A stretch of 64,000 bases of DNA from an uncultured Verrucomicrobiae bacterium (GTDB lineage: Bacteria; Verrucomicrobiota; Verrucomicrobiia; Limisphaerales; JAFGQR01). The notes beneath the pieces are model-generated. The model worked only from the letters and a program-made list of their open reading frames with translations. It was not told the origin of the DNA and ran no database searches. This document shows, piece by piece, positions 10,198 to 20,558 of the stretch (its first letter is position 1; each line of letters begins with the position of its first letter). A program made the position numbers and the translations under genes. The stretch is from positions 1 through 64,000 of the forward strand of contig CAWBHS010000011.1 of assembly GCA_963788655.1 (NCBI GenBank). The letters are read 5' to 3'.

Positions 10198-10492
10198 GCA
10201 TAGTCACGGCTAAGTGGCCGCCCTCGGCCCGCAACGCCTACAGCAGTTTCATTCACGTATCTATTTAGATCCACTTGCAATCGAACGTGTGACGATGGAT
10301 TTTTCTGTCTCCTCAAACAACTTGCGTCCAGTCAGTTGCGCAACCAGCAACTCGAAAGAGCCATAAAAAGTTTGATGCTTTTGTAGTAGAGTTTTTATGA
10401 TGATGTTCTCGTCGTTTGACGGGCGGACGCTCGGCGGCTGGTCGGTGAACGGACGTTTAAACACTCAAAGAAAACTCAGAACAGAAAACGAC

Positions 10493-12214
10493 ATGTGCGG
10501 CATCGCCGGAATAATTAGTCAGGAAGAAAGCGACTTGGGTGCTCCCTTGAAGCGGATGCTCGGGACCATGGAACACCGCGGACCGGATGGTGCCGGATTT
10601 ATGGTGGGTAATTTAATCCAGCATGGAAACAGTCTGCAGGAACTGGATTTTGACGGCAAAGTGGGACGCGTCGCCTTGGGACACGTGCGCCTGGCGATTA
10701 CCGGCACGTCCACCGCCCTCCAACCCTTCCAAAGCCGCGACGGACGATTGACCCTGTTGCACAACGGGGAGATTTACAATTACCGTGAACTTGGTTCACA
10801 GACGCCCGGTCTTACCCCCCAGTCCGTGGGCAGTGACAGCGAGATCGTCCTGCGGGAATTGGAGCAGGAATACGACGGGGATCTCAAGGCAGCGGTCTTG
10901 CGCATCCTGCCCCGCCTGGATGGCGTGTATGCGTTGGCGATCACGGACCAAACACAAACCGTGGTCGTGCGGGACCGAATCGGCGTGCGCCAATTGTATT
11001 ACGCCCGGCAAAATGGCCACCTGGCCTTCGCCTCGGAAAAGAAGCCGCTGTGGGAACTGTGCGGTCGCGCGGCCGACGTCCGGCGCGTGGAGCCGGGCCA
11101 CCTGTTGGCCGTGGATCACCGGGGCGACAGCGTCCAGTCGTTCTGGCAGCCGGAACAACTGCGATCCGAAACGGTGATCACCGATCCGGAGCAGGCGTTG
11201 GCGAGTTATGATCAAGCCATCCGCTCGGCCATCGAGAAACGGATTCGCGGTCGTCAGCGCGTGGGTATTATTTTTTCGGGCGGCATTGACAGTGTGTTGG
11301 TCGCCCATCTGGTGCGTGAAGCCGGCGTGCCGTTCACCTGCTACACCGTGGGATGCGGCGAGCAGGCCGAGGATCTGGTGTGGGCCCGCGCAGTGGCAGG
11401 CCGCCTGGGCTTCCCCTTGGAAGCAACCATCCTGAAACCAGCGGACGTAGAGAAGCTGATCCCGGAAATCATCCGTGACATTGAAGACCACAGCCTGAAC
11501 CAAGTGGAAGTGGCCGTGCCGATCTACATCGCCAATCGGATGGCCCAGGAGGCCGGGGAACGCGTGCTGCTCACCGGTCAAGGGGCCGACGAGCTGTTTG
11601 GCGGCTACCCATGGTATTCGCGCGTGGCGGCCGCGGATGGATACGGAGAATTTGTGCGGCGGTCCTGGGAGGATACCTGCCTGCTCTACAAGGAATGCCT
11701 CGAACGCGAGGACAAAATTTCCATGGCCCATAGCATGGAATTGCGCGTGCCGTTCCTGGATCCAGAGGTCATCCGCGTGGCGTTTCAAATCGCACCAGAA
11801 TTGAAGATCCACAAGGGGGAGGATCCGTTGGGCAAACACATTCATCGCCTTTACTGCCGGGCCGTGGGAATACCGGATGACATCGCGAACCGCGTCAAAG
11901 CCGCCGCCCAACATGGCGCCAATGTCCATGATACCATCGAAAGTCTGGTCCGCCGGCAGTCTCCCGAGGCCACGGCCTTGCGGGGGGCTGCTTATGATCC
12001 GGACCGGTCGGTGACCGAAAAACTGGGGAGTTCCTCGCGGTATGGGTACCGCTACGGCGACGCGCAATTATGGAAACCCAATGCGGCGGTCCAATTCTAC
12101 CTGGATTCGCAGGCCGCCCGATTGGGCATGCTGCCGACGGCCGTGCAACATCACTGGCAGGAGGTCAACCAACGATTGAACCCAGCACCCAAAGCTTCCG
12201 CGCCAAGAACATGA
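10493..12214 (+). CDS. asnB: AsnB-family glutamine-dependent amidotransferase (asparagine synthase-like)
   Basis: N-terminal MCGIAG (Ntn Cys), HRGPD, HNGEIYNY, SDSE, SGGIDS ATP loop, TGQGADELFGGY and RVPFLD. Its stop overlaps the mpgS start (ATGA 12211-12214). Confidence 0.92.
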   Translation: MCGIAGIISQEESDLGAPLKRMLGTMEHRGPDGAGFMVGNLIQHGNSLQELDFDGKVGRVALGHVRLAITGTSTALQPFQSRDGRLTLLHNGEIYNYRELGSQTPGLTPQSVGSDSEIVLRELEQEYDGDLKAAVLRILPRLDGVYALAITDQTQTVVVRDRIGVRQLYYARQNGHLAFASEKKPLWELCGRAADVRRVEPGHLLAVDHRGDSVQSFWQPEQLRSETVITDPEQALASYDQAIRSAIEKRIRGRQRVGIIFSGGIDSVLVAHLVREAGVPFTCYTVGCGEQAEDLVWARAVAGRLGFPLEATILKPADVEKLIPEIIRDIEDHSLNQVEVAVPIYIANRMAQEAGERVLLTGQGADELFGGYPWYSRVAAADGYGEFVRRSWEDTCLLYKECLEREDKISMAHSMELRVPFLDPEVIRVAFQIAPELKIHKGEDPLGKHIHRLYCRAVGIPDDIANRVKAAAQHGANVHDTIESLVRRQSPEATALRGAAYDPDRSVTEKLGSSSRYGYRYGDAQLWKPNAAVQFYLDSQAARLGMLPTAVQHHWQEVNQRLNPAPKASAPRT

Positions 12215-13407
12215 GACTCGAACGACCGAAAGAGATCGAGCGGTTCGGCGCAATTCGCTTTGGCGATTTGCAGAAGATTTTCGAGTTGGATTCCGGTCTG
12301 GCGACGAGCAGCCCGGTGGTCAACTCCGCCATCATGCAAGTAGGCAACAGCTCGCTGGCCGAGGTGCAGAAGCAAATGGCCATCATCGTGCCGGTGCGCA
12401 GCGAGCGCTTGAAACTGGTGGAAGGCGTGCTGTGCGGCATTCCGCATCCCTGCCTGATCATCGTCGTTTCCAACAGCCCGCGCCGGCCGGTGGACCGTTT
12501 TGCCATGGAAGAAGACGCCTTGCAGGAATTCTGCACCTTTACGGACAAACAAGCGGTGATCATTCACCAGAAGGATCCGCTGATTGCCAAGGCGTTCAAC
12601 CAGGTGGGCTATCGCGAGTTGCTCACCCCTCAGGGACAAGTGCGGGATGGTAAAGCAGAAGGCATGCTCATCGGCACGGCCTTGGCCCGGCTGGCGGGCA
12701 AGAAGTATATCGGCTTTGTCGATGCGGACAATTACTTCCCCGGCGCGGTCGAGGAATACGTCCGGGTGTATGCGTCGATTTTCGCGACGAGCGATTCGCC
12801 CTACACGATGGTGCGGATTGTCTGGCACAGCAAACCCAAGATCGAGGAATCCAAACTGTTCTTCCGCAAATGGGGGCGCACCTCCAACCGCACGAACACG
12901 TTTCTGAACAAGCTGCTGGCACATTATACGGGCTTTGAAACGGAAATTATCAAGACCGGCAACGCCGGCGAGCACGCCATGACCATGGACATGGCGCTGG
13001 CGCTGGACTATTCCTCCGGGTATTCGATCGAGCCCTTCCACATCATCAACTTGATCGAAAAGTTCGGCGGCGTGCTGGACTGTCCCCTGCCGGACGTGAT
13101 GAAGCACAAAGTCGAAGTGTACCAGGTGGAGTCGCGCAACCCGCACCTGCACGAAGCGGGCGATGACAGCCATATCCAATCGATGCACTATCAGGCCATG
13201 CAGGTGATTTACCATTCGCCGGTCTGCCAGGCACCGCTGAAGAAAGAACTGCACGAAGCAATGATCAAGGGCGGTTGTCTCAAGCCCAAAACCCCTCCCG
13301 ACCGGCCGCGGTATTTCCCGGCCTTGCGCACCATCGATTTCACCAAGTTTCGGAAGATTCTCGCCAAACATCCTCCTTTAAAACTGCTGTTCGCCAAACG
13401 ATCATGA
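12211..13407 (+). CDS. mpgS: Mannosyl-3-phosphoglycerate synthase (GT55)
   Basis: MRLERPKEIERFGAIRF..QKIFELDSG, GIPHPCLIIVVSNS, VRDGKAEGM, YIGFVDADNYFPGAV, TGNAGEHAMT, SGYSIEP and ESRNPHLHE match the MpgS family. Confidence 0.93.
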   Translation: MRLERPKEIERFGAIRFGDLQKIFELDSGLATSSPVVNSAIMQVGNSSLAEVQKQMAIIVPVRSERLKLVEGVLCGIPHPCLIIVVSNSPRRPVDRFAMEEDALQEFCTFTDKQAVIIHQKDPLIAKAFNQVGYRELLTPQGQVRDGKAEGMLIGTALARLAGKKYIGFVDADNYFPGAVEEYVRVYASIFATSDSPYTMVRIVWHSKPKIEESKLFFRKWGRTSNRTNTFLNKLLAHYTGFETEIIKTGNAGEHAMTMDMALALDYSSGYSIEPFHIINLIEKFGGVLDCPLPDVMKHKVEVYQVESRNPHLHEAGDDSHIQSMHYQAMQVIYHSPVCQAPLKKELHEAMIKGGCLKPKTPPDRPRYFPALRTIDFTKFRKILAKHPPLKLLFAKRS

Positions 13408-15056
13408 ACATCTTGGATTGGGGCGTCATTGTCGTGTACCTCGGAGGCATCGTGGCGCTGGCCTACTGGCTGGGACGCCAACAAGTTTCACTCCGTGATT
13501 ATTATCTGGCCGGCCAGCGCGTGCCCTGGTGGCAGTCGGGCGTGTCGATCATGGCCACGCAACTCGGCGCCATCAGCTTCGTGTCGGCGCCGGCGTTTGT
13601 CGCGCTGGCCAAGGGCGGCGGCTTGAAATGGCTCTGCTACGAGTTCGGGGTGCCACTCGGCTTGATCCTGGTCATGGCGGTCATCATGCCCGTCTTGCAT
13701 CGCGGACAACACATCAGCATCTACGAATACCTGGAGCAGCGCTTTGACCGGCGGGTCCGTCTGCTGGTGAGCGTGCTCTTCCAACTGGGGCGCGGCCTGG
13801 CCACCGCCGTGTCCGTGCTGGCGGGCGGTCTGATTCTGTCCACGGCGCTGGCCATTCCCACCCCGACCGCCATCGTGGTCGTGGGATTGGTGACGTTGGT
13901 CTATGACGTGCTCGGCGGCATGCGGGTGGTGATCCTGAGCGACGTGTTGCAAATGGTCATCATCGTGGCCGGAATTCTGGTGTGCGGCGGCGTGGCGTGG
14001 CATTGGGTAGGCTGGGATCAGGCTTGGCAGACCATGGAGGCAGGCCGGTTGCAGATTCTGGACTTTGGCCGGGCGGGATTGAGCGCGGAGGGCGAATATG
14101 CCTTCTGGCCCATGGTGCTTGGCGGAATGATTCTTTACGCCTCCTATTACGGTTGTGACCAAAGCCAGGCCCAACGCCAGCTCTCGGTGGGCAGCTTGAA
14201 GGACATTCGAAAATCACTGCTGTTCAATGCGCTGGGCCGGTTCCCCGTCGTGCTGATGTATTGCTTGATGGGGGTCCTGGTCGGGGCCATTTTTCTGACT
14301 CCGGAAGGTTTGGCCCAGGTCACCACCGCCACCGGGATGGATCATTCGGCGCTTGCCGAGACGTTGTCGCGCGATCCGGATCGCATGCTTCCGATGTTCA
14401 TCCTTTCCTTCCTGCCGCACGGGTTGATTGGTTTCTTGTTCGTGGCGGTCATGGCCGCGTTGATGTCCAGTCTGGATTCCGCGATCAACTCGCTCAGCGC
14501 TGTGACCATGCGCGACGTGTATCAGATCTATATCCGGCCCCACGCCGAAGAACGGCATTATTTCACAATGTCGAAAGTTTTCACCGCCGGCTGGGGATTG
14601 TTTTGCATTTTCGCGGCGCTGGGTTTTGCCACCCTCGGTGAAGCCACCCGCCACACGACGATTGTGTTGATTAACGCCGTCGGCAGTCTGCTCTACGGAC
14701 CCATTCTGGCGGCTTTTATCCTGGGCATCATGACCCGGAAAGTGAGCGCGAAAGCCGTCTTCCTCGGCGTGGTGGTCGGCATCCTCACCAATTTGTGTGC
14801 CTGGCAACTGACCGACATCTCCTGGTTGTGGTGGAATGTCATCGGTTTCCTGGCCTCGCTGTTGTTTGCCGGTCTGATTACCGCCATGACACAGGAAGCC
14901 ACAGCGCCCTCGTCGGCGACCGGCGCGGTGGCGGTCGCGCAGGCTGGCGGCCCGGGCTGGCGATCTGTTTACGCGCTGGTCGGCGTCTATTTCCTGGTGA
15001 TCGTGGGCGTTTGTCTGTGGTTGCAGGCCCAGGTTGTTTCGCCGGTCGCCGGATAG
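13404..15056 (+). CDS. Sodium:solute symporter (SSS family)
   Basis: About 13-14 hydrophobic segments. Motifs DYYLAG, SIMATQLGAISF, SIYEYLEQRF, GGMRVVILSDVLQ, YGCDQSQAQR and AALMSSLDSAINSLS. Start overlaps the mpgS stop (ATGA). Confidence 0.92.
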   Translation: MNILDWGVIVVYLGGIVALAYWLGRQQVSLRDYYLAGQRVPWWQSGVSIMATQLGAISFVSAPAFVALAKGGGLKWLCYEFGVPLGLILVMAVIMPVLHRGQHISIYEYLEQRFDRRVRLLVSVLFQLGRGLATAVSVLAGGLILSTALAIPTPTAIVVVGLVTLVYDVLGGMRVVILSDVLQMVIIVAGILVCGGVAWHWVGWDQAWQTMEAGRLQILDFGRAGLSAEGEYAFWPMVLGGMILYASYYGCDQSQAQRQLSVGSLKDIRKSLLFNALGRFPVVLMYCLMGVLVGAIFLTPEGLAQVTTATGMDHSALAETLSRDPDRMLPMFILSFLPHGLIGFLFVAVMAALMSSLDSAINSLSAVTMRDVYQIYIRPHAEERHYFTMSKVFTAGWGLFCIFAALGFATLGEATRHTTIVLINAVGSLLYGPILAAFILGIMTRKVSAKAVFLGVVVGILTNLCAWQLTDISWLWWNVIGFLASLLFAGLITAMTQEATAPSSATGAVAVAQAGGPGWRSVYALVGVYFLVIVGVCLWLQAQVVSPVAG

Positions 15057-15084: not shown

Positions 15085-15909
15085 ATGCCTCGGTCGCGTT
15101 ACATCGTCATCACGGACCTCGACGGAACGTTGCTGGATCACCATACCTATTCCTACGCGGAGTCCCTGCCCGGACTGCGCCTCCTGCAGGAGCATCACAT
15201 CCCGATTGTTTTCTGCTCCGCCAAAACGCGGGCCGAACAAATTGTGTTACGTCAGGCACTCGGAGTGCGGGATCCGTTCATCGTGGAGAACGGTGGTGCC
15301 GTGGTTTGGGAGACGGGATATTTTCGCCAACCGCTCCCGGACGCGCGCATTCAAGGCAATTACCAACGGCTGGAGTTGGCGCGCCCTTATTCCGAAGTGC
15401 GGCGCGTCCTCGCCGAGGTTACCGCGGAACTGAATTTGCCGGTGCAGGGCTTTGGCGACCTGACGCCCGCGGAAGTGGCGCAGTGCGCGGATTTTGATTT
15501 GGAATCCGCTACTCGCGCGATGCAACGCGAATATGCCGAAACCGTGGTCACCCCCTTGGACGAGGCTGCCCGCGAGCGATTGCGCGCCGCGTTGTCGGGG
15601 CGAGGGGTGAATTTGATTGTCGGTGCCCGGTTCCTCTCCATTTCCACCGCCAACGACAAAGGCCGCGCCGCGCAAGCCCTCGCCGATATGTTCCGCGCCG
15701 AATGGAGCGAAGTAGTCACCGTGGGCCTTGGCGATAGTCACAACGACGCGCCCTTGCTCGAGGCGGTGGACCTGCCGTTGCTCGTGCAACGTCCGGACGG
15801 TACCTGGACCGACATGCCGGTGAACGGTCTCCGCAAGATCAACCACATCGGCCCCCGCGGGTGGACCCAGGCGGCGCGAATGCTGGTGGAGAAGATTCAG
15901 TCCGACTAG
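15085..15909 (+). CDS. mpgP: Mannosyl-3-phosphoglycerate phosphatase (HAD IIB)
   Basis: TDLDGTLLDH, CSAKTRAE, PFIVENGG, REYAE, DKGRA, GLGDSHNDAPLL and GPRGW, in the same operon as mpgS. Confidence 0.92.
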   Translation: MPRSRYIVITDLDGTLLDHHTYSYAESLPGLRLLQEHHIPIVFCSAKTRAEQIVLRQALGVRDPFIVENGGAVVWETGYFRQPLPDARIQGNYQRLELARPYSEVRRVLAEVTAELNLPVQGFGDLTPAEVAQCADFDLESATRAMQREYAETVVTPLDEAARERLRAALSGRGVNLIVGARFLSISTANDKGRAAQALADMFRAEWSEVVTVGLGDSHNDAPLLEAVDLPLLVQRPDGTWTDMPVNGLRKINHIGPRGWTQAARMLVEKIQSD

Positions 15910-15914
15910 CGCCC

Positions 15915-17984
15915 TTATCCAGCGAGCCGCGCTGAACCGCGAACTCCCGCCAATGTCTGGCGCCGGCGGGCGCGGTGCAGCAGTCGATCCAGCCAGCGGA
16001 GGTATTGCACGAAGAACGGCCGGGAAAGCGGCATCCGTACCGCCAATTGCCGCGTGATTTGCTGATGATGCCGACCGCCGTAGAGAAACGCTTTTCGTTC
16101 GTGCCGGTCCATGCGCTCGCGTTCCAGCATCATCCAATTGCGATGAACGGCCAGTTGGGTTTCCCGCAGCAATAGCTCCAAGGCCAGCGACGGCTTGCGG
16201 CTTTGGCGGAGATCAGCTTCCATCGCCAGCGAGGCGCATTCGAACAACAGCGGAATTCGCGACACTGGATGCCAACTAAATTGCGTGGGGCTGAGGTCCA
16301 CAATCCACGGTCGTCCCTCCGGGCTGATGATCCGCAAAAAATAGTGCAGATCAGGGGTCCATTGGACGCGGCAACGGTAACCCAACCCGGAGAACACTTG
16401 GTAACCCGCCACGCTCACCAGGTCGCATATCCGCGGGTAATCCTGCCAGGCCCCGCGCTTTTCCTGCACCAGTCGGTGGATGATTTCCGCGACTTGCCGC
16501 AGCCGGCGGTCAAAGTCCGCCTCTTGCACGGGCGTCAGCGACTCCAGCGCGCGGGCCTGCACGGCTGCGAGAACGTCAGCCGTAAAGACCGGCGGTCCGG
16601 ACGTAATGCGGTCCACCGTCAACTGGATGGAGCGAATTCCCGGATGCAAATACAATGTCTTCAACTGCGGATCGCGGGCGGCCGCTTGGGGGGAAATGAC
16701 CAGGACGGGCTGGTGCAATTCCGGTGGGGCTTTCAAAGGCGTCATGATGTCCGTAAGCGTGCTCCACGAAAAGTAGGACGCGCCCAAGCCTTTGCCCGTA
16801 AACGGATCGTAGTACTCCCAATACCCCTCGTTCTTCACCAACTGCTGACTTTTTTCGACGATTTTCGCGGCGATATCCAGGTAATCGTAATTCAGCAAGC
16901 CGCGGCTCAGCAGCCAATGCATGTTGATCCACACCGGCCCGCGCCAATAGCGGTAACGATCGAAGCCTGGCGTCCGAAACGAGGCGCTGGGCACACCCAG
17001 ATGGTAATAAAACTCGCGGCGGTCCATGAGATGTTCCACCAGCGATTCCGCCGTGGCGGCCGTGGCGGCTTCCGCGTAAAGCGGCATGAATCCACCGATG
17101 GTCTTGACCCGGATCGGCTGTCCGGATTCCAAGTCCCGTGAATAGAAAAACCCATCCTTGGGATGCCAGCAGTAGCGCCGCAAGGCCCGGCGGGTTTGCG
17201 TCGCCCAGGCCAGGAACTTCGCCTGGTCCGCCTGCCGGCCCAACACCCAGGCCAGTTTCGCCAAGTCCTGGTTCGCTTTCGCCCAAACGGAATTAAAAAG
17301 CACGTCGGCTACGCGAAACGGAGACCGGAGCATCATGGCCCGCTGATTCCACCGGGCCTGCTGGAAAACGCGAATGAGCCCCCAGTAGAACCGGTAGTAA
17401 TCATCCGTCGGCCGCTGCGCCAGCGGTACCCGCTTGGTGTCGGCCCGCGGTGGCGGCTCAAAGCCCGGTGGCAAATGCTCCCGCAAGAAGGTGTCTTTCA
17501 AGCCGTCAAACGCGGGACTGTTGTCCATCCCGCTTTCCCATGGATGCAAAATCGCCACCAACCCCGTGTCGTCCGGATCGCGCACCTTTTTCAACCAACG
17601 ATGAAAGTGGACAATCTGCGGGTAGGCCCGTTTCAGGAACGCACGGTTGCCGGTCTTTTGAAAGACCAACTTGGCCGCCGGCGCCACCATCGGAGTCTGG
17701 GTGATGCCCGAATGCGGACCGCCGGTCTGCCAATCCGCCGGATTCGGGCGGTAACGGCTTGCGTCCACATGCGGGTTGAACGTGATATGTGGGATCATGC
17801 CATCCGGTTGCTGCGTCGCGAGCAGTGCGTCCATTTCGCGAAAGGCCAGTTCCGGCCGCAGATGCGCCAGCACGATGGCGTGGAAGCAGGCATCCCACAA
17901 CCAGAGGTGCGGATATTGCCCGGCGGAGGGCACGATGAAGCTTTGCGTACTATTGAATTCCAGCAAGTCTAAGGGCGACCACAT
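15915..17984 (-). CDS. GH63 mannosylglycerate/glucosylglycerate hydrolase-like protein with a ~270-aa C-terminal extension
   Basis: YPHLWLWDACFHAI, GMIPHI, SGITQTP, HPWESGMDNSP, YWRGPVWINMHW and EYYDPFTGKGLGASYFSWS. The extra C-terminal domain contains CDLVS...HYFL...IVDLSPTQF. Confidence 0.88.
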   Translation of the reverse strand: MWSPLDLLEFNSTQSFIVPSAGQYPHLWLWDACFHAIVLAHLRPELAFREMDALLATQQPDGMIPHITFNPHVDASRYRPNPADWQTGGPHSGITQTPMVAPAAKLVFQKTGNRAFLKRAYPQIVHFHRWLKKVRDPDDTGLVAILHPWESGMDNSPAFDGLKDTFLREHLPPGFEPPPRADTKRVPLAQRPTDDYYRFYWGLIRVFQQARWNQRAMMLRSPFRVADVLFNSVWAKANQDLAKLAWVLGRQADQAKFLAWATQTRRALRRYCWHPKDGFFYSRDLESGQPIRVKTIGGFMPLYAEAATAATAESLVEHLMDRREFYYHLGVPSASFRTPGFDRYRYWRGPVWINMHWLLSRGLLNYDYLDIAAKIVEKSQQLVKNEGYWEYYDPFTGKGLGASYFSWSTLTDIMTPLKAPPELHQPVLVISPQAAARDPQLKTLYLHPGIRSIQLTVDRITSGPPVFTADVLAAVQARALESLTPVQEADFDRRLRQVAEIIHRLVQEKRGAWQDYPRICDLVSVAGYQVFSGLGYRCRVQWTPDLHYFLRIISPEGRPWIVDLSPTQFSWHPVSRIPLLFECASLAMEADLRQSRKPSLALELLLRETQLAVHRNWMMLERERMDRHERKAFLYGGRHHQQITRQLAVRMPLSRPFFVQYLRWLDRLLHRARRRQTLAGVRGSARLAG

Positions 17985-18402: not shown

Positions 18403-20558
18403 ATGAACGACATTAAAGCGAAAGTCCTGCACCTGCTCGGGCAGCGGGATTATGTGCCCCTTAACGTTCCGGAGTTGCTGCGCCGGCTTCGCTTGGGGCC
18501 TCAGGGCCAACAGGAACTCCAACTGGTGCTGCGCGAACTGGCGCAGACCGGCCGCATCGCCCGCATCAAGGGCAACCGCTACATCCAGCCACGTGAAGCC
18601 GATCTCGTTCCCGGGCGAATTCGCATGAACCGCCAGGGCAAAGGCTTTCTCCAGCCGGATGATCCTGACTTGAAGGAAATCGTCATCCCGGAGAGCGCCA
18701 CGTCCACCGCCTTGCACGAAGACCGGGTGTTGGTGCGGTTGGATGTACGGCCCCAGGGGCTGCGACCAGAGTCGCGAGCGCCGTCCACCGGCACCGTTGT
18801 TCGCATCCTGGAACGTCGGCGCACGCGGATCGTCGGCACGCTGCAGCGCAGCCGGCAATTCCTCTTCGTGGTTCCCGACGATCCGCGCATTCCGCACGAC
18901 ATTTATGTTCTGCCGCGTCGCCCGGCCGGCCGGCCGGCGAACGTCGGGGACAAGGTGGTGGTCGGCTTGCGTGAATGGGAGTCGCGGCACACCAATCCGG
19001 AGGGCGAAATTCTCGAAGTGCTGGGTTCGCCGGATGAACCAGGCGTGGACATGAACTCGGTGCTGCGCCAATACGGCTTGCCCCTCCAGTTCCCCAAGAA
19101 CGCGCGGCACGAGGCGCGGTCCCTGGGGACGGCCATTACCCCGCACGATCTCCAGGGCCGGGTCGATTGCCGCCGACGCCGGGTTCTCACGATTGATCCG
19201 GACGACGCGAAGGATTTCGACGATGCCATTGGCTTGGAACGAGCCGGGCAAAATCAATGGCGACTGTGGGTCCACATCGCGGACGTGTCCCACTACGTCA
19301 AACCCGGCAGCGCACTCGATGTCGAAGCGCGCCAGCGCGGCAACTCGACCTATCTCGTGGACCGCGTCATTCCCATGCTTCCGGAGGAATTGAGTAACGA
19401 ACTCTGCTCGCTCAAGCCCGAAGTGGACCGCCTCACGAAATGTGTCGAGTTCCTCCTCGCACCTGACGGCCGGGTGTTGCGGACGAAGTTCTACGCGGCG
19501 GTGATTCATTCGCGGCGCCGACTGACGTACGCCGAAGCCCTCGGTATTCTGCAACGCAAACCCACCGGCCCGCTCGACGAGATGCTGCACCAGGCGCACG
19601 CCCTGGCTCAGCGCCTCCGCCGCGCCCGTTTCAAGGCTGGTGCGCTCGCGCTCGATTTTCCGGAAATGAAGATTCGGTTGGACCAGCAGGGACGCGTGGA
19701 CCGCATCGAGAAAGTGGAGAACGACGTGTCGCACCAACTCATCGAGGAATTCATGCTGCTGGCCAACGAGGCGGTGGCCGCCCGGTGATTGGCGCTGCGC
19801 CGACCGGCGGTGTATCGCGTTCATGAGGCACCCGACGAAGCCCGGCTGGAGGAATATCGCCAGGAGGTTTTGAGCCATAACGTGCCCTGCGGCAATCTCC
19901 GTCACCGGGCCGAAGTGCAACGGTTGCTGCACAAGCTCGACACGTCTGCCCATCGGGGCGGCGCTCAAGATCGGCTTTCTCAAATCGCTGCATGCGGGCC
20001 CGCTACGCGGTGGAACCGCTCGGCCATTATGGACTGGCCAAGACGAAATACACGCACTTCACCTCGCCCATCCGCCGTTACGCCGACCTCGTGGTGCATC
20101 GCGCGCTGTTCGACCGAACCGCCGCCTCGACTTCGGCGCTCAAGGAAACCGCCGAACACATCTCGGTGACGGAACGCAACTCCGCCGACGCCGAGCGCGA
20201 CAGCAAGGACGTGAAGCTCTTGGCGTTTCTCGAGGGCCAGCTTCGCTCCGGCCGGCCGCAGCCGTATCCGGCGCTGGTGACGGATATGCGCAACTTCGGC
20301 TTCTTCGTGGACGTGCCCGGATTGGCCATGAGCGGTCTGGTGCCGCTCTCGGCGCTGGAGGACGATTTTTACGTGTTCGACACAGCACGCAACCAACTCG
20401 TCGGCCGCCGGACCCGCCACGTGATCCGACTCGGCGACCGGGTGACAGTTCAGGTGTTCAAAGTGAATCCGTTCAAGAAACAAGTGGATTTCCAACTGGC
20501 TCCCGACCGCCCACCCGCCCGTCGCCGAGCCGTTCGCGCCCGAAAGGAACGTCATTGA
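18403..20558 (+). CDS. rnr: Ribonuclease R (interrupted by TGA at 19786-19788 and indels near 19945 and 19990, probably assembly errors)
   Basis: Cold-shock domains, [58 protein letters not shown] and a C-terminal S1 domain, spread over ORFs 18403-19788, 19789-20169 and 19992-20558. Confidence 0.92.

Follow-up and report, generated by a model that had tools for sequence, protein, structure and literature searches.

The fusion gene and its locus

The window analyzed here, i.e., the whole stretch of 64,000 nucleotides from the beginning of contig CAWBHS010000011.1 of an uncultured Verrucomicrobiae bacterium, contains an open reading frame (ORF) of 689 amino acids (15915..17984, reverse strand) in which a hydrolase of the GH63/MGH1-like type is followed by a C-terminal extension. 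Convergent with it is an operon of four genes on the forward strand that code for an AsnB-like amidotransferase, mannosyl-3-phosphoglycerate synthase (mpgS), a symporter and a protein of the mannosyl-3-phosphoglycerate phosphatase family (mpgP). The glycoside hydrolase (GH) domain takes up residues 24–408 (16761..17915, reverse strand; Pfam PF22422) and the extension residues 414–689 (276 amino acids; 15918..16745, reverse strand), the latter consisting of an alpha/beta N-terminal part, a core with a Cys, a His and an Asp, and a tail of four helices. An earlier note on this DNA, made from the letters alone, had placed the end of the GH63 domain at about 16740 and had seen that the frame runs on for some 270 residues, which it took for a papain/transglutaminase-like domain, possibly an amidase that would act before the glycosidase. 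The domain limits found here bear out this partition. The extension has no family assignment: no Pfam family matched residues 414–689 at E ≤ 1, no NCBIfam family matched them either, and a search of the PDB with the single extension sequence retrieved one irrelevant match at E 0.25.

Judging by its sequence, the N-terminal domain is an intact enzyme of the mannosylglycerate hydrolase (MGH) type. It matched the Pfam family MGH1-like_GH over the entire profile (positions 1–356 of 356) with an E-value of 2.6e-105 and 353.3 bits (cut-off 27), and a phmmer search with the N-terminal 413 amino acids retrieved the MGH of Thermus thermophilus (E 4.1e-82) and the glucosylglycerate hydrolase (GgH) of Mycolicibacterium hassiacum (E 8.3e-47). 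The model of the domain has the (alpha/alpha)6 fold of the solved enzymes, with several loops of low pLDDT, and the best structure found by Foldseek was that of the Thermus MGH (4wva; E 2.7e-19, 38% identity, TM-score on the target 0.78–0.80). Against the NCBIfam equivalog for GgH the score was 274.6, where 550 is required, and the hydrolase is therefore not an equivalog of the mycobacterial GgH. In the work on the M. hassiacum enzyme (PMC6608630), Asp43, Asp182 and Glu419 are given as catalytic/substrate residues and Tyr88 and Arg216 as contacts of the glycerate. Mapped through the alignment onto those residues, the counterparts in the window protein are D31, D154 and E390 for the first group and Y78 and R191 for the second, and all five were invariant among the fusion proteins (13/13). 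As far as conservation goes, the hydrolase half looks active and shaped for a glycerate aglycone. The solved chains of the Thermus MGH and the M. hassiacum GgH have 389–448 residues, which means that the extension is truly extra and fits the statement of the earlier note that the characterized mannosylglycerate and glucosylglycerate hydrolases are single-domain enzymes.

Beside the Tyr that contacts the glycerate, residues 78–81 (about 17742–17753, reverse strand) read Y-R-P-N in all the GH domains that carry the extension and Y-F-P-G, at the equivalent place, in the extension-less MGHs of Verrucomicrobiota, in the Thermus MGH and in the M. hassiacum GgH. This could be either a change in the +1 subsite tied to the extension or a mere clade marker. 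The genome of the window (G000) also has, on other contigs, further and more distant MGH1-like GH matches (C31:3921-5348 and C21:6067-6804).

The GH63 domain and the extension form a genuine, conserved two-part fusion, neither a read-through nor an artefact of a single metagenome-assembled genome (MAG). The whole architecture was found again in 12 other proteins of 676–686 amino acids, one of them named as coming from a Verrucomicrobia MAG, with identities of 56–71% in the extension. It is also encoded, in an uninterrupted frame, at three loci (L002, L003 and L004) from three species-representative genomes of Verrucomicrobiota and, by the names of their sources, more distant proteins with GH domain and extension, P0016 and P0036, come from Elusimicrobiota and Alphaproteobacteria MAGs, respectively. 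In a FastTree phylogeny of 93 GH domains, those that carry the extension formed one clade with support 1.0. This recurrence in independent proteins, other genomes, other phyla and one supported clade excludes a chance fusion or read-through found in this assembly only, which the earlier note had named as the way in which its proposal could fail. We give practically no weight to an error in the assembly or gene calling of this MAG, a possibility already refuted by the uninterrupted copies from independent sources, even though the source MAG is 86% complete with 5.6% contamination and the adjoining RNase R gene contains both an in-frame stop and a frameshift. Nested inside the extension clade, as sister of the fusion protein P0018 (support 0.998), there was one GH domain without extension, that of locus L021. 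The simplest reading of this tree would be that the extension was gained once in ancient times, kept for long and lost at least once.

The broken RNase R gene spans positions 18403–20558 of the window (forward strand). The match to the RNB profile covers profile positions 1–212 and stops at an in-frame TGA (19786–19788); past it the frame resumes until a frameshift ahead of position 19992, after which the remainder of RNB and the S1 domain follow. The gene is either a pseudogene or the product of an assembly error in this MAG.

The Cys-His-Asp site and the predicted fold

Within the extension the earlier note had singled out a Cys, a His and an Asp separated by 27 and 16 residues as a possible catalytic triad. 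Reading the codons on the reverse strand confirmed both positions and spacings: the proposed nucleophile Cys520 is encoded by TGC (16425..16427), His547 by CAC (16344..16346) and Asp563 by GAC (16296..16298). The three residues belong to a conserved core (residues 516–582; 16239..16439, reverse strand), which we delimited by the alignments, the AlphaFold2 (AF2) model and the stretch aligned by hhalign. The order along this core is Y-P-R-x-C-D, a helix, a first strand, a second strand that starts at His547, a third strand that ends at Asp563, the pair Q568-F569 and the pair S575-R576. In an alignment of 22 extensions with identities of 19–70%, six of the 276 columns were invariant (D521, H547, D563, Q568, F569 and R576), and Cys520 was kept in 21 of the 22, with Ser in protein P0016. 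A second alignment, restricted to the core, comprised 17 sequences of all architectures, including the kinase fusions described below; the His, Asp, Gln and Phe were invariant in it (17/17) and the Cys was present in 16, with Ser in the remaining one. At the level of sequence, conservation in the domain family is highest at the Cys-His-Asp set, and a triad that is not conserved among homologs, another way in which the earlier proposal could have failed, is excluded as well.

The AF2 model of the domain, built on the alignment of 22 sequences, reached a pLDDT of 89.9 and a pTM of 0.88. In domain numbering, a small alpha/beta N-terminal part is followed by helix 107–120, which opens with the Cys (Cys107), by strand 124–130, by strand 134–140, which begins with the His (His134), and by strand 146–150, at the end of which lies the Asp (Asp150). 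Then come four long helices (160–179, 187–207, 214–236 and 243–261) that form a C-terminal helical bundle at about residues 573–674 of the whole protein (15963..16268, reverse strand). The secondary-structure layout of this model, with the Cys at the start of a helix and the His and the Asp on the strands that follow, is the one of the transglutaminase/papain core. We also compared the family by hhalign with six Transglut_core regions taken from the genome of the window. Residues 106–154 of the extension aligned with positions 68–122 of that core, with Cys, His and Asp each in register (score 21.1, P 0.019); among column-permuted controls 3 of 200 reached this score, and the reversed control gave 16.4.

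Links to named families were sought with several kinds of profile. The Pfam family Tox-PLDMTX (PF15645) was matched by two of nine members of the extension family, and PF15645 had no match in the protein of the window or anywhere in its genome. The best of these matches (E 0.0031) had 18.1 bits, below the cut-off of 26.1, and for this reason, and given the lack of a match for the window protein, we have not filed the extension as a member of Tox-PLDMTX. Transglut_core was matched by one member of the nine (E 0.14). In the PDB, the family profile found mouse PNGase (2f4m, E 0.64), with His aligned on His, and SseI at E 2.4, and a profile made from the core only found SseI (4g29) at E 0.0047, with the Asp and the Q-F that follows it aligned. 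In the ESM Atlas the best score for the extension was 0.79, below the meaningful level, so that Transglut_core3, at 0.77, can be taken as a lead only. Profile searches for more relatives of the extension returned none beyond the family already found.

Several of these results weigh against the assignment to the transglutaminase/papain fold. The alignment to SseI misplaces the His by one position, and the same search with the core profile ranked two designed TIM barrels above SseI and had forkhead domains close to it, which makes E-values at this level soft. All sequence links to known papain-fold families lie under the curated thresholds, and with the extension model Foldseek and VIA-align retrieved no papain-like structure, the matches being uninformative helical-bundle look-alikes of the tail. 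The transglutaminase/papain-like triad of the earlier note thus fits the layout of the AF2 model and the hhalign register, while the structure searches were uninformative and no link passed the family thresholds. Taking both sides together, we consider it likely that the extension is a real catalytic domain of the papain/transglutaminase fold. The best explanation for its core is a divergent Cys-His-Asp hydrolase of the transglutaminase/papain type, with a layout closest to the PNGase core and to the deamidase type of SseI and the C3 region of Pasteurella multocida toxin (PMT). As a group of proteins it is a new, rare family within a known superfamily, belonging to no named family and found in a new architecture.

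It is quite improbable, in our opinion, that the extension is a non-catalytic module on an old papain-like core, serving for oligomerization, as a scaffold or to sense a ligand such as glycerate or mannosylglycerate. The replacement of the Cys by Ser in P0016 does count against a catalytic triad, and the pTM of 0.81 of the full-length model suggests a fixed arrangement of the extension with the GH domain, as a structural module might have. However, a Ser in the position of the Cys can still be a nucleophile, and among sequences with 19–35% identity conservation sits on the Cys, the His, the Asp and a few neighbors and not on the helical tail. In the same direction, locus L004 keeps the core without the tail, although the junction there may be an assembly chimera.

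Family size and domain architectures

The extension family is very small. When 1.84 billion representatives were searched exhaustively with HMMER, only 19 related clusters came up, and we scanned the representatives of 16 of them with Pfam, leaving out three short fragments. Seven had an MGH1-like GH domain, three had DUF4147 plus MOFRL, one had ACTMAP-like_C, one had a weak match to Tox-PLDMTX, and nothing else was recognized in the remaining four. The DUF4147+MOFRL partners are glycerate 2-kinases (NCBIfam; PDB 1x3l, E 1.6e-50), and in P0020 (1227 amino acids), P0030 (1259) and P0032 (3621) the Cys-His-Asp domain comes directly before the kinase. The first 480 residues of P0020 were grouped by the Atlas with GT2/mannosylglycerate synthase (MGS)-like clusters at 0.98, and Pfam matched them to MGS_GT at an E-value of only 0.16. 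According to these matches, the domain is fused to enzymes that release and that phosphorylate glycerate and probably also to one that glycosylates it. Dedication of the family to the metabolism of glycerate solutes would be the best explanation for this choice of partners.

P0032 has, besides, methyltransferase-like and sigma-factor-like stretches. At L004 (8762-11200, forward strand) the GH domain and the Cys-His-Asp core, the latter to about extension residue 186–193, continue in frame into a HAD-IA phosphatase-like domain. We do not count this HAD fusion as a fourth architecture, because its junction is located in a short motif compatible with either part and the reading frame runs off the contig; a genuine further architecture or a chimeric assembly could account for it.

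These architectures also bear on the kind of substrate. The domain could act on proteins, as a cysteine protease, a protein glutamine deamidase or a transglutaminase, with the hydrolase, the glycerate kinase or a partner as the protein to be processed or regulated. The SseI/PMT type, PNGase and the transglutaminases, to which the extension is weakly similar, all act on proteins; there are stand-alone forms of the domain (P0022, P0025, P0029 and P0031); and P0024, in which it is paired with the protease-type domain ACTMAP-like_C, hints at protein substrates in some members. Nevertheless, in 10 of the 16 representatives the fusion partner is an enzyme of a single small-molecule pathway (the MGH-type hydrolase or glycerate 2-kinase), and fusion within one pathway is the usual sign of consecutive metabolic steps. 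Nor is there an evident target protein or cleavage site, and an action on proteins appears to us improbable.

Gene neighborhood and co-occurrence with the AsnB-like gene

The first gene of the convergent operon (10490..12214, forward strand) codes for the AsnB-like glutamine amidotransferase, with the Pfam domains Asn_synthase and GATase and a score of 319.7 bits against the asparagine synthase family TIGR01536 (cut-off 267.1); TIGR03104 was its third-best match. From the position of the Pfam amidotransferase domain, the start is likely the Met-Cys at 10490, the listed ORF of 605 amino acids beginning at 10397. It is followed on the same strand by mpgS (12211..13407; PF09488 E 1.1e-152; TIGR02460 482.6 vs. 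351.2 bits), by a sodium:solute symporter of the SSF family (13404..15056; PF00474 E 5.7e-43; TIGR00813) and by mpgP, of the HAD type (15085..15909; TIGR01486 233.2 vs. 164.75 bits). Stop and start codons overlap as ATGA between the asnB-like gene and mpgS (12211–12214) and between mpgS and the symporter gene (13404–13407), and the stop codons of mpgP and of the convergent hydrolase gene are 5 bases apart.

L003 has all five genes, arranged as in the window, and its orthologue of the asnB-like gene is 72% identical and occupies the same position. At L002 the contig breaks off after mpgP and the terminal part of mpgS, and L004 ends inside the fusion gene. A symporter within an operon for solute synthesis is unusual, and there is none between mpgP and mpgS in L002. 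Directly upstream of the fusion gene and on the same strand, L002 (5000-6583) and L004 (7032-8618, forward strand) have an anion symporter of the DASS family (Na_sulph_symp/CitMHS), preceded by a sulfatase; in the window this place is occupied by RNase R.

To this neighborhood we added a count across the phylum, in an even sample of 401 Verrucomicrobiota genomes plus the genome of L003 (G401). Within the sample, mpgS was present in four genomes and the extension in one, that of the window. Considering the five genomes that carry mpgS, extension and asnB-like gene occur together (2/2) or are both missing (3/3). The two that have the orthologue of the asnB-like gene are G000 and G401, with best MGH open frames of 732 and 706 amino acids, respectively; in G180, G213 and G267, which lack it, the best MGH open frames are of 470, 480 and 510 amino acids. 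The search for the orthologue gave no match in G180 and only matches of 38–45% to the amidotransferase domain in G213 and G267, and in the last of these genomes a single-domain MGH lies directly beside mpgS-mpgP. The association of the fusion with the asnB-mpgS arrangement, which the earlier note had proposed to check, was found as predicted, on few and related genomes. A metagenome scan for MGH-like loci yielded 80, all of them without the extension, and none of the 80 had matches to the asnB-like gene, mpgS or mpgP.

A possible role in the turnover of an amidated solute

One known route to an amidated osmolyte, N-acetylglutaminylglutamine amide (NAGGN), is the AsnO-Ngg pathway, in which solute genes are joined to that of an AsnB-type amidotransferase. 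As to glycerate solutes, PMC1224877 reports that in Rhodothermus marinus the neutral solute mannosylglyceramide takes the place of mannosylglycerate during salt stress. Searching the literature on mannosylglyceramide, on glyceramide and on mannosylglycerate together with asparagine synthetase, we found no gene assigned to the formation or the removal of the amide.

In the proposed role, the convergent operon of asnB-like gene, mpgS, symporter and mpgP would make an amidated solute and the fusion protein would take it apart. In the extension, Cys520, activated by His547 and Asp563, would attack mannosylglyceramide or free glyceramide at the carboxamide, ammonia being released with formation of a thioester intermediate that would then be hydrolyzed. 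The GH63 half, with its counterpart of the glycerate-contacting Arg, would next split mannosylglycerate into mannose and glycerate; where the domain is fused to the kinase, phosphorylation of the glycerate would follow. The retention of the catalytic Asp and Glu residues and of the equivalent of Arg216 fits this order, with deamidation first and hydrolysis second. That the substrate of the extension is a solute amide, i.e., that we are dealing with a solute amidase, is the leading reading, to which we give somewhat less than an even chance. The co-occurrence with the asnB-like gene speaks for it, and so do the fusions to glycerate 2-kinase, which the earlier note had not foreseen. Slightly less probable is the complete proposal, in which the AsnB-like enzyme amidates mannosylglycerate to neutral mannosylglyceramide and the extension, founding a new amidase family with the transglutaminase/papain fold and small-molecule substrates, reverses this step.

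There are several points that speak against it. The AsnB-like protein passes the NCBI equivalog cut-off for asparagine synthase (TIGR01536) and could therefore simply make asparagine. The genomes of the co-occurrence count represent about three independent lineages, all in one phylum. Transglutaminase-fold enzymes work also as proteases and acyltransferases, and the invariant Arg576 would be better suited to an anionic substrate than to a neutral one. In addition, at L021 (9944-12325, forward strand) a GH of 430 amino acids that belongs to the extension clade no longer has the domain, and 34 bases after it comes the gene of a PlsC-type acyltransferase.

A further possibility is that the extension is a catalytic Cys-His-Asp enzyme with another small-molecule substrate, an esterase, thioesterase or acyltransferase that would act on an acylated or otherwise derivatized glycosyl-glycerate or glycerate. 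The AF2 layout and the hhalign alignment fit any chemistry of the papain/transglutaminase type, Arg576 and Gln568, both invariant, would suit an anionic or ester substrate, the arrangement at L021 puts an acyltransferase where the domain is missing, and the fusions to glycerate kinase and to an MGS-like glycosyltransferase call for glycerate and not necessarily for an amide. But L021 is a single locus, and its other neighbors are unrelated acyl-CoA genes; no gene that handles acyl groups is present in the cluster of the window; no extra enzyme other than the amidotransferase follows the distribution of the domain; and the nearest weak matches, PNGase and the SseI/PMT type, cleave amides. On balance we hold such a substrate to be unlikely, if a little less so than a protein substrate or a non-catalytic module. 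At L021 both the GH and the acyltransferase sit among genes of acyl-CoA metabolism. The gene downstream of this GH was also considered as a split-off extension and rejected, as hhalign gave an E-value of 0.42 and Pfam calls it Acyltransferase.

If the solute amidase proposal is right, the AsnB-like enzyme and the fused domain would make up a complete system, defined genetically, that switches the charge of a compatible solute, and the genes for making and for unmaking the amide would both be named for a solute known since the 1990s. The removal of the amide would be directly coupled to the cleavage of the glycoside or, in other bacteria, to the phosphorylation of glycerate. The fusion also allows the amidated-solute model to be tested independently of the asnB-like gene. 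Whatever its substrate, the domain is a new and very rare family without a relative in Pfam, NCBIfam or the PDB, and since its MGH, glycerate 2-kinase and MGS-like partners link it to a single small pathway, its function ought to be tractable.

Comparison with known systems

The closest characterized counterparts of the N-terminal half are the MGH of Thermus thermophilus HB8 (TTHA0978; PDB 2z07 and 4wva-c) and the GgH of M. hassiacum (PDB 5ohc, among others), which have the same GH domain with the same catalytic and glycerate-contacting residues. They differ in that the characterized enzymes finish some 10–20 residues past the GH domain, whereas the protein of the window goes on for 276 amino acids. 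As to the operon, the NAGGN system (AsnO-Ngg) also has an AsnB-type amidotransferase beside the solute genes. In R. marinus, mannosylglyceramide is known as a solute, whereas in these Verrucomicrobiota it is a putative one.

With PNGase and Transglut_core (PF01841) the extension shares the order of a Cys at the start of a helix followed by strands with the His and the Asp, and the triad falls in register in the hhalign comparison. The spacings of the Cys, His and Asp in PNGase are 27 and 17, close to the 27 and 16 of the extension, and PNGase cleaves an amide bond. The flanking subdomains, however, are different, and the fusion partners of the extension are a glycosidase or a kinase and not protein-binding modules. 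The stretch from the His to the Asp, and after it the motif Asp-x-[ST]-x-x-Gln-Phe, could be aligned with SseI at the soft E-value of 0.0047 mentioned above. Proteins of the SseI/PMT-C3 type hydrolyze the carboxamide of protein glutamine, and their Cys and His are some 38–40 residues apart, compared to 27 in the extension. They are secreted effectors, whereas the proteins that carry the extension are cytoplasmic metabolic fusions of environmental bacteria.

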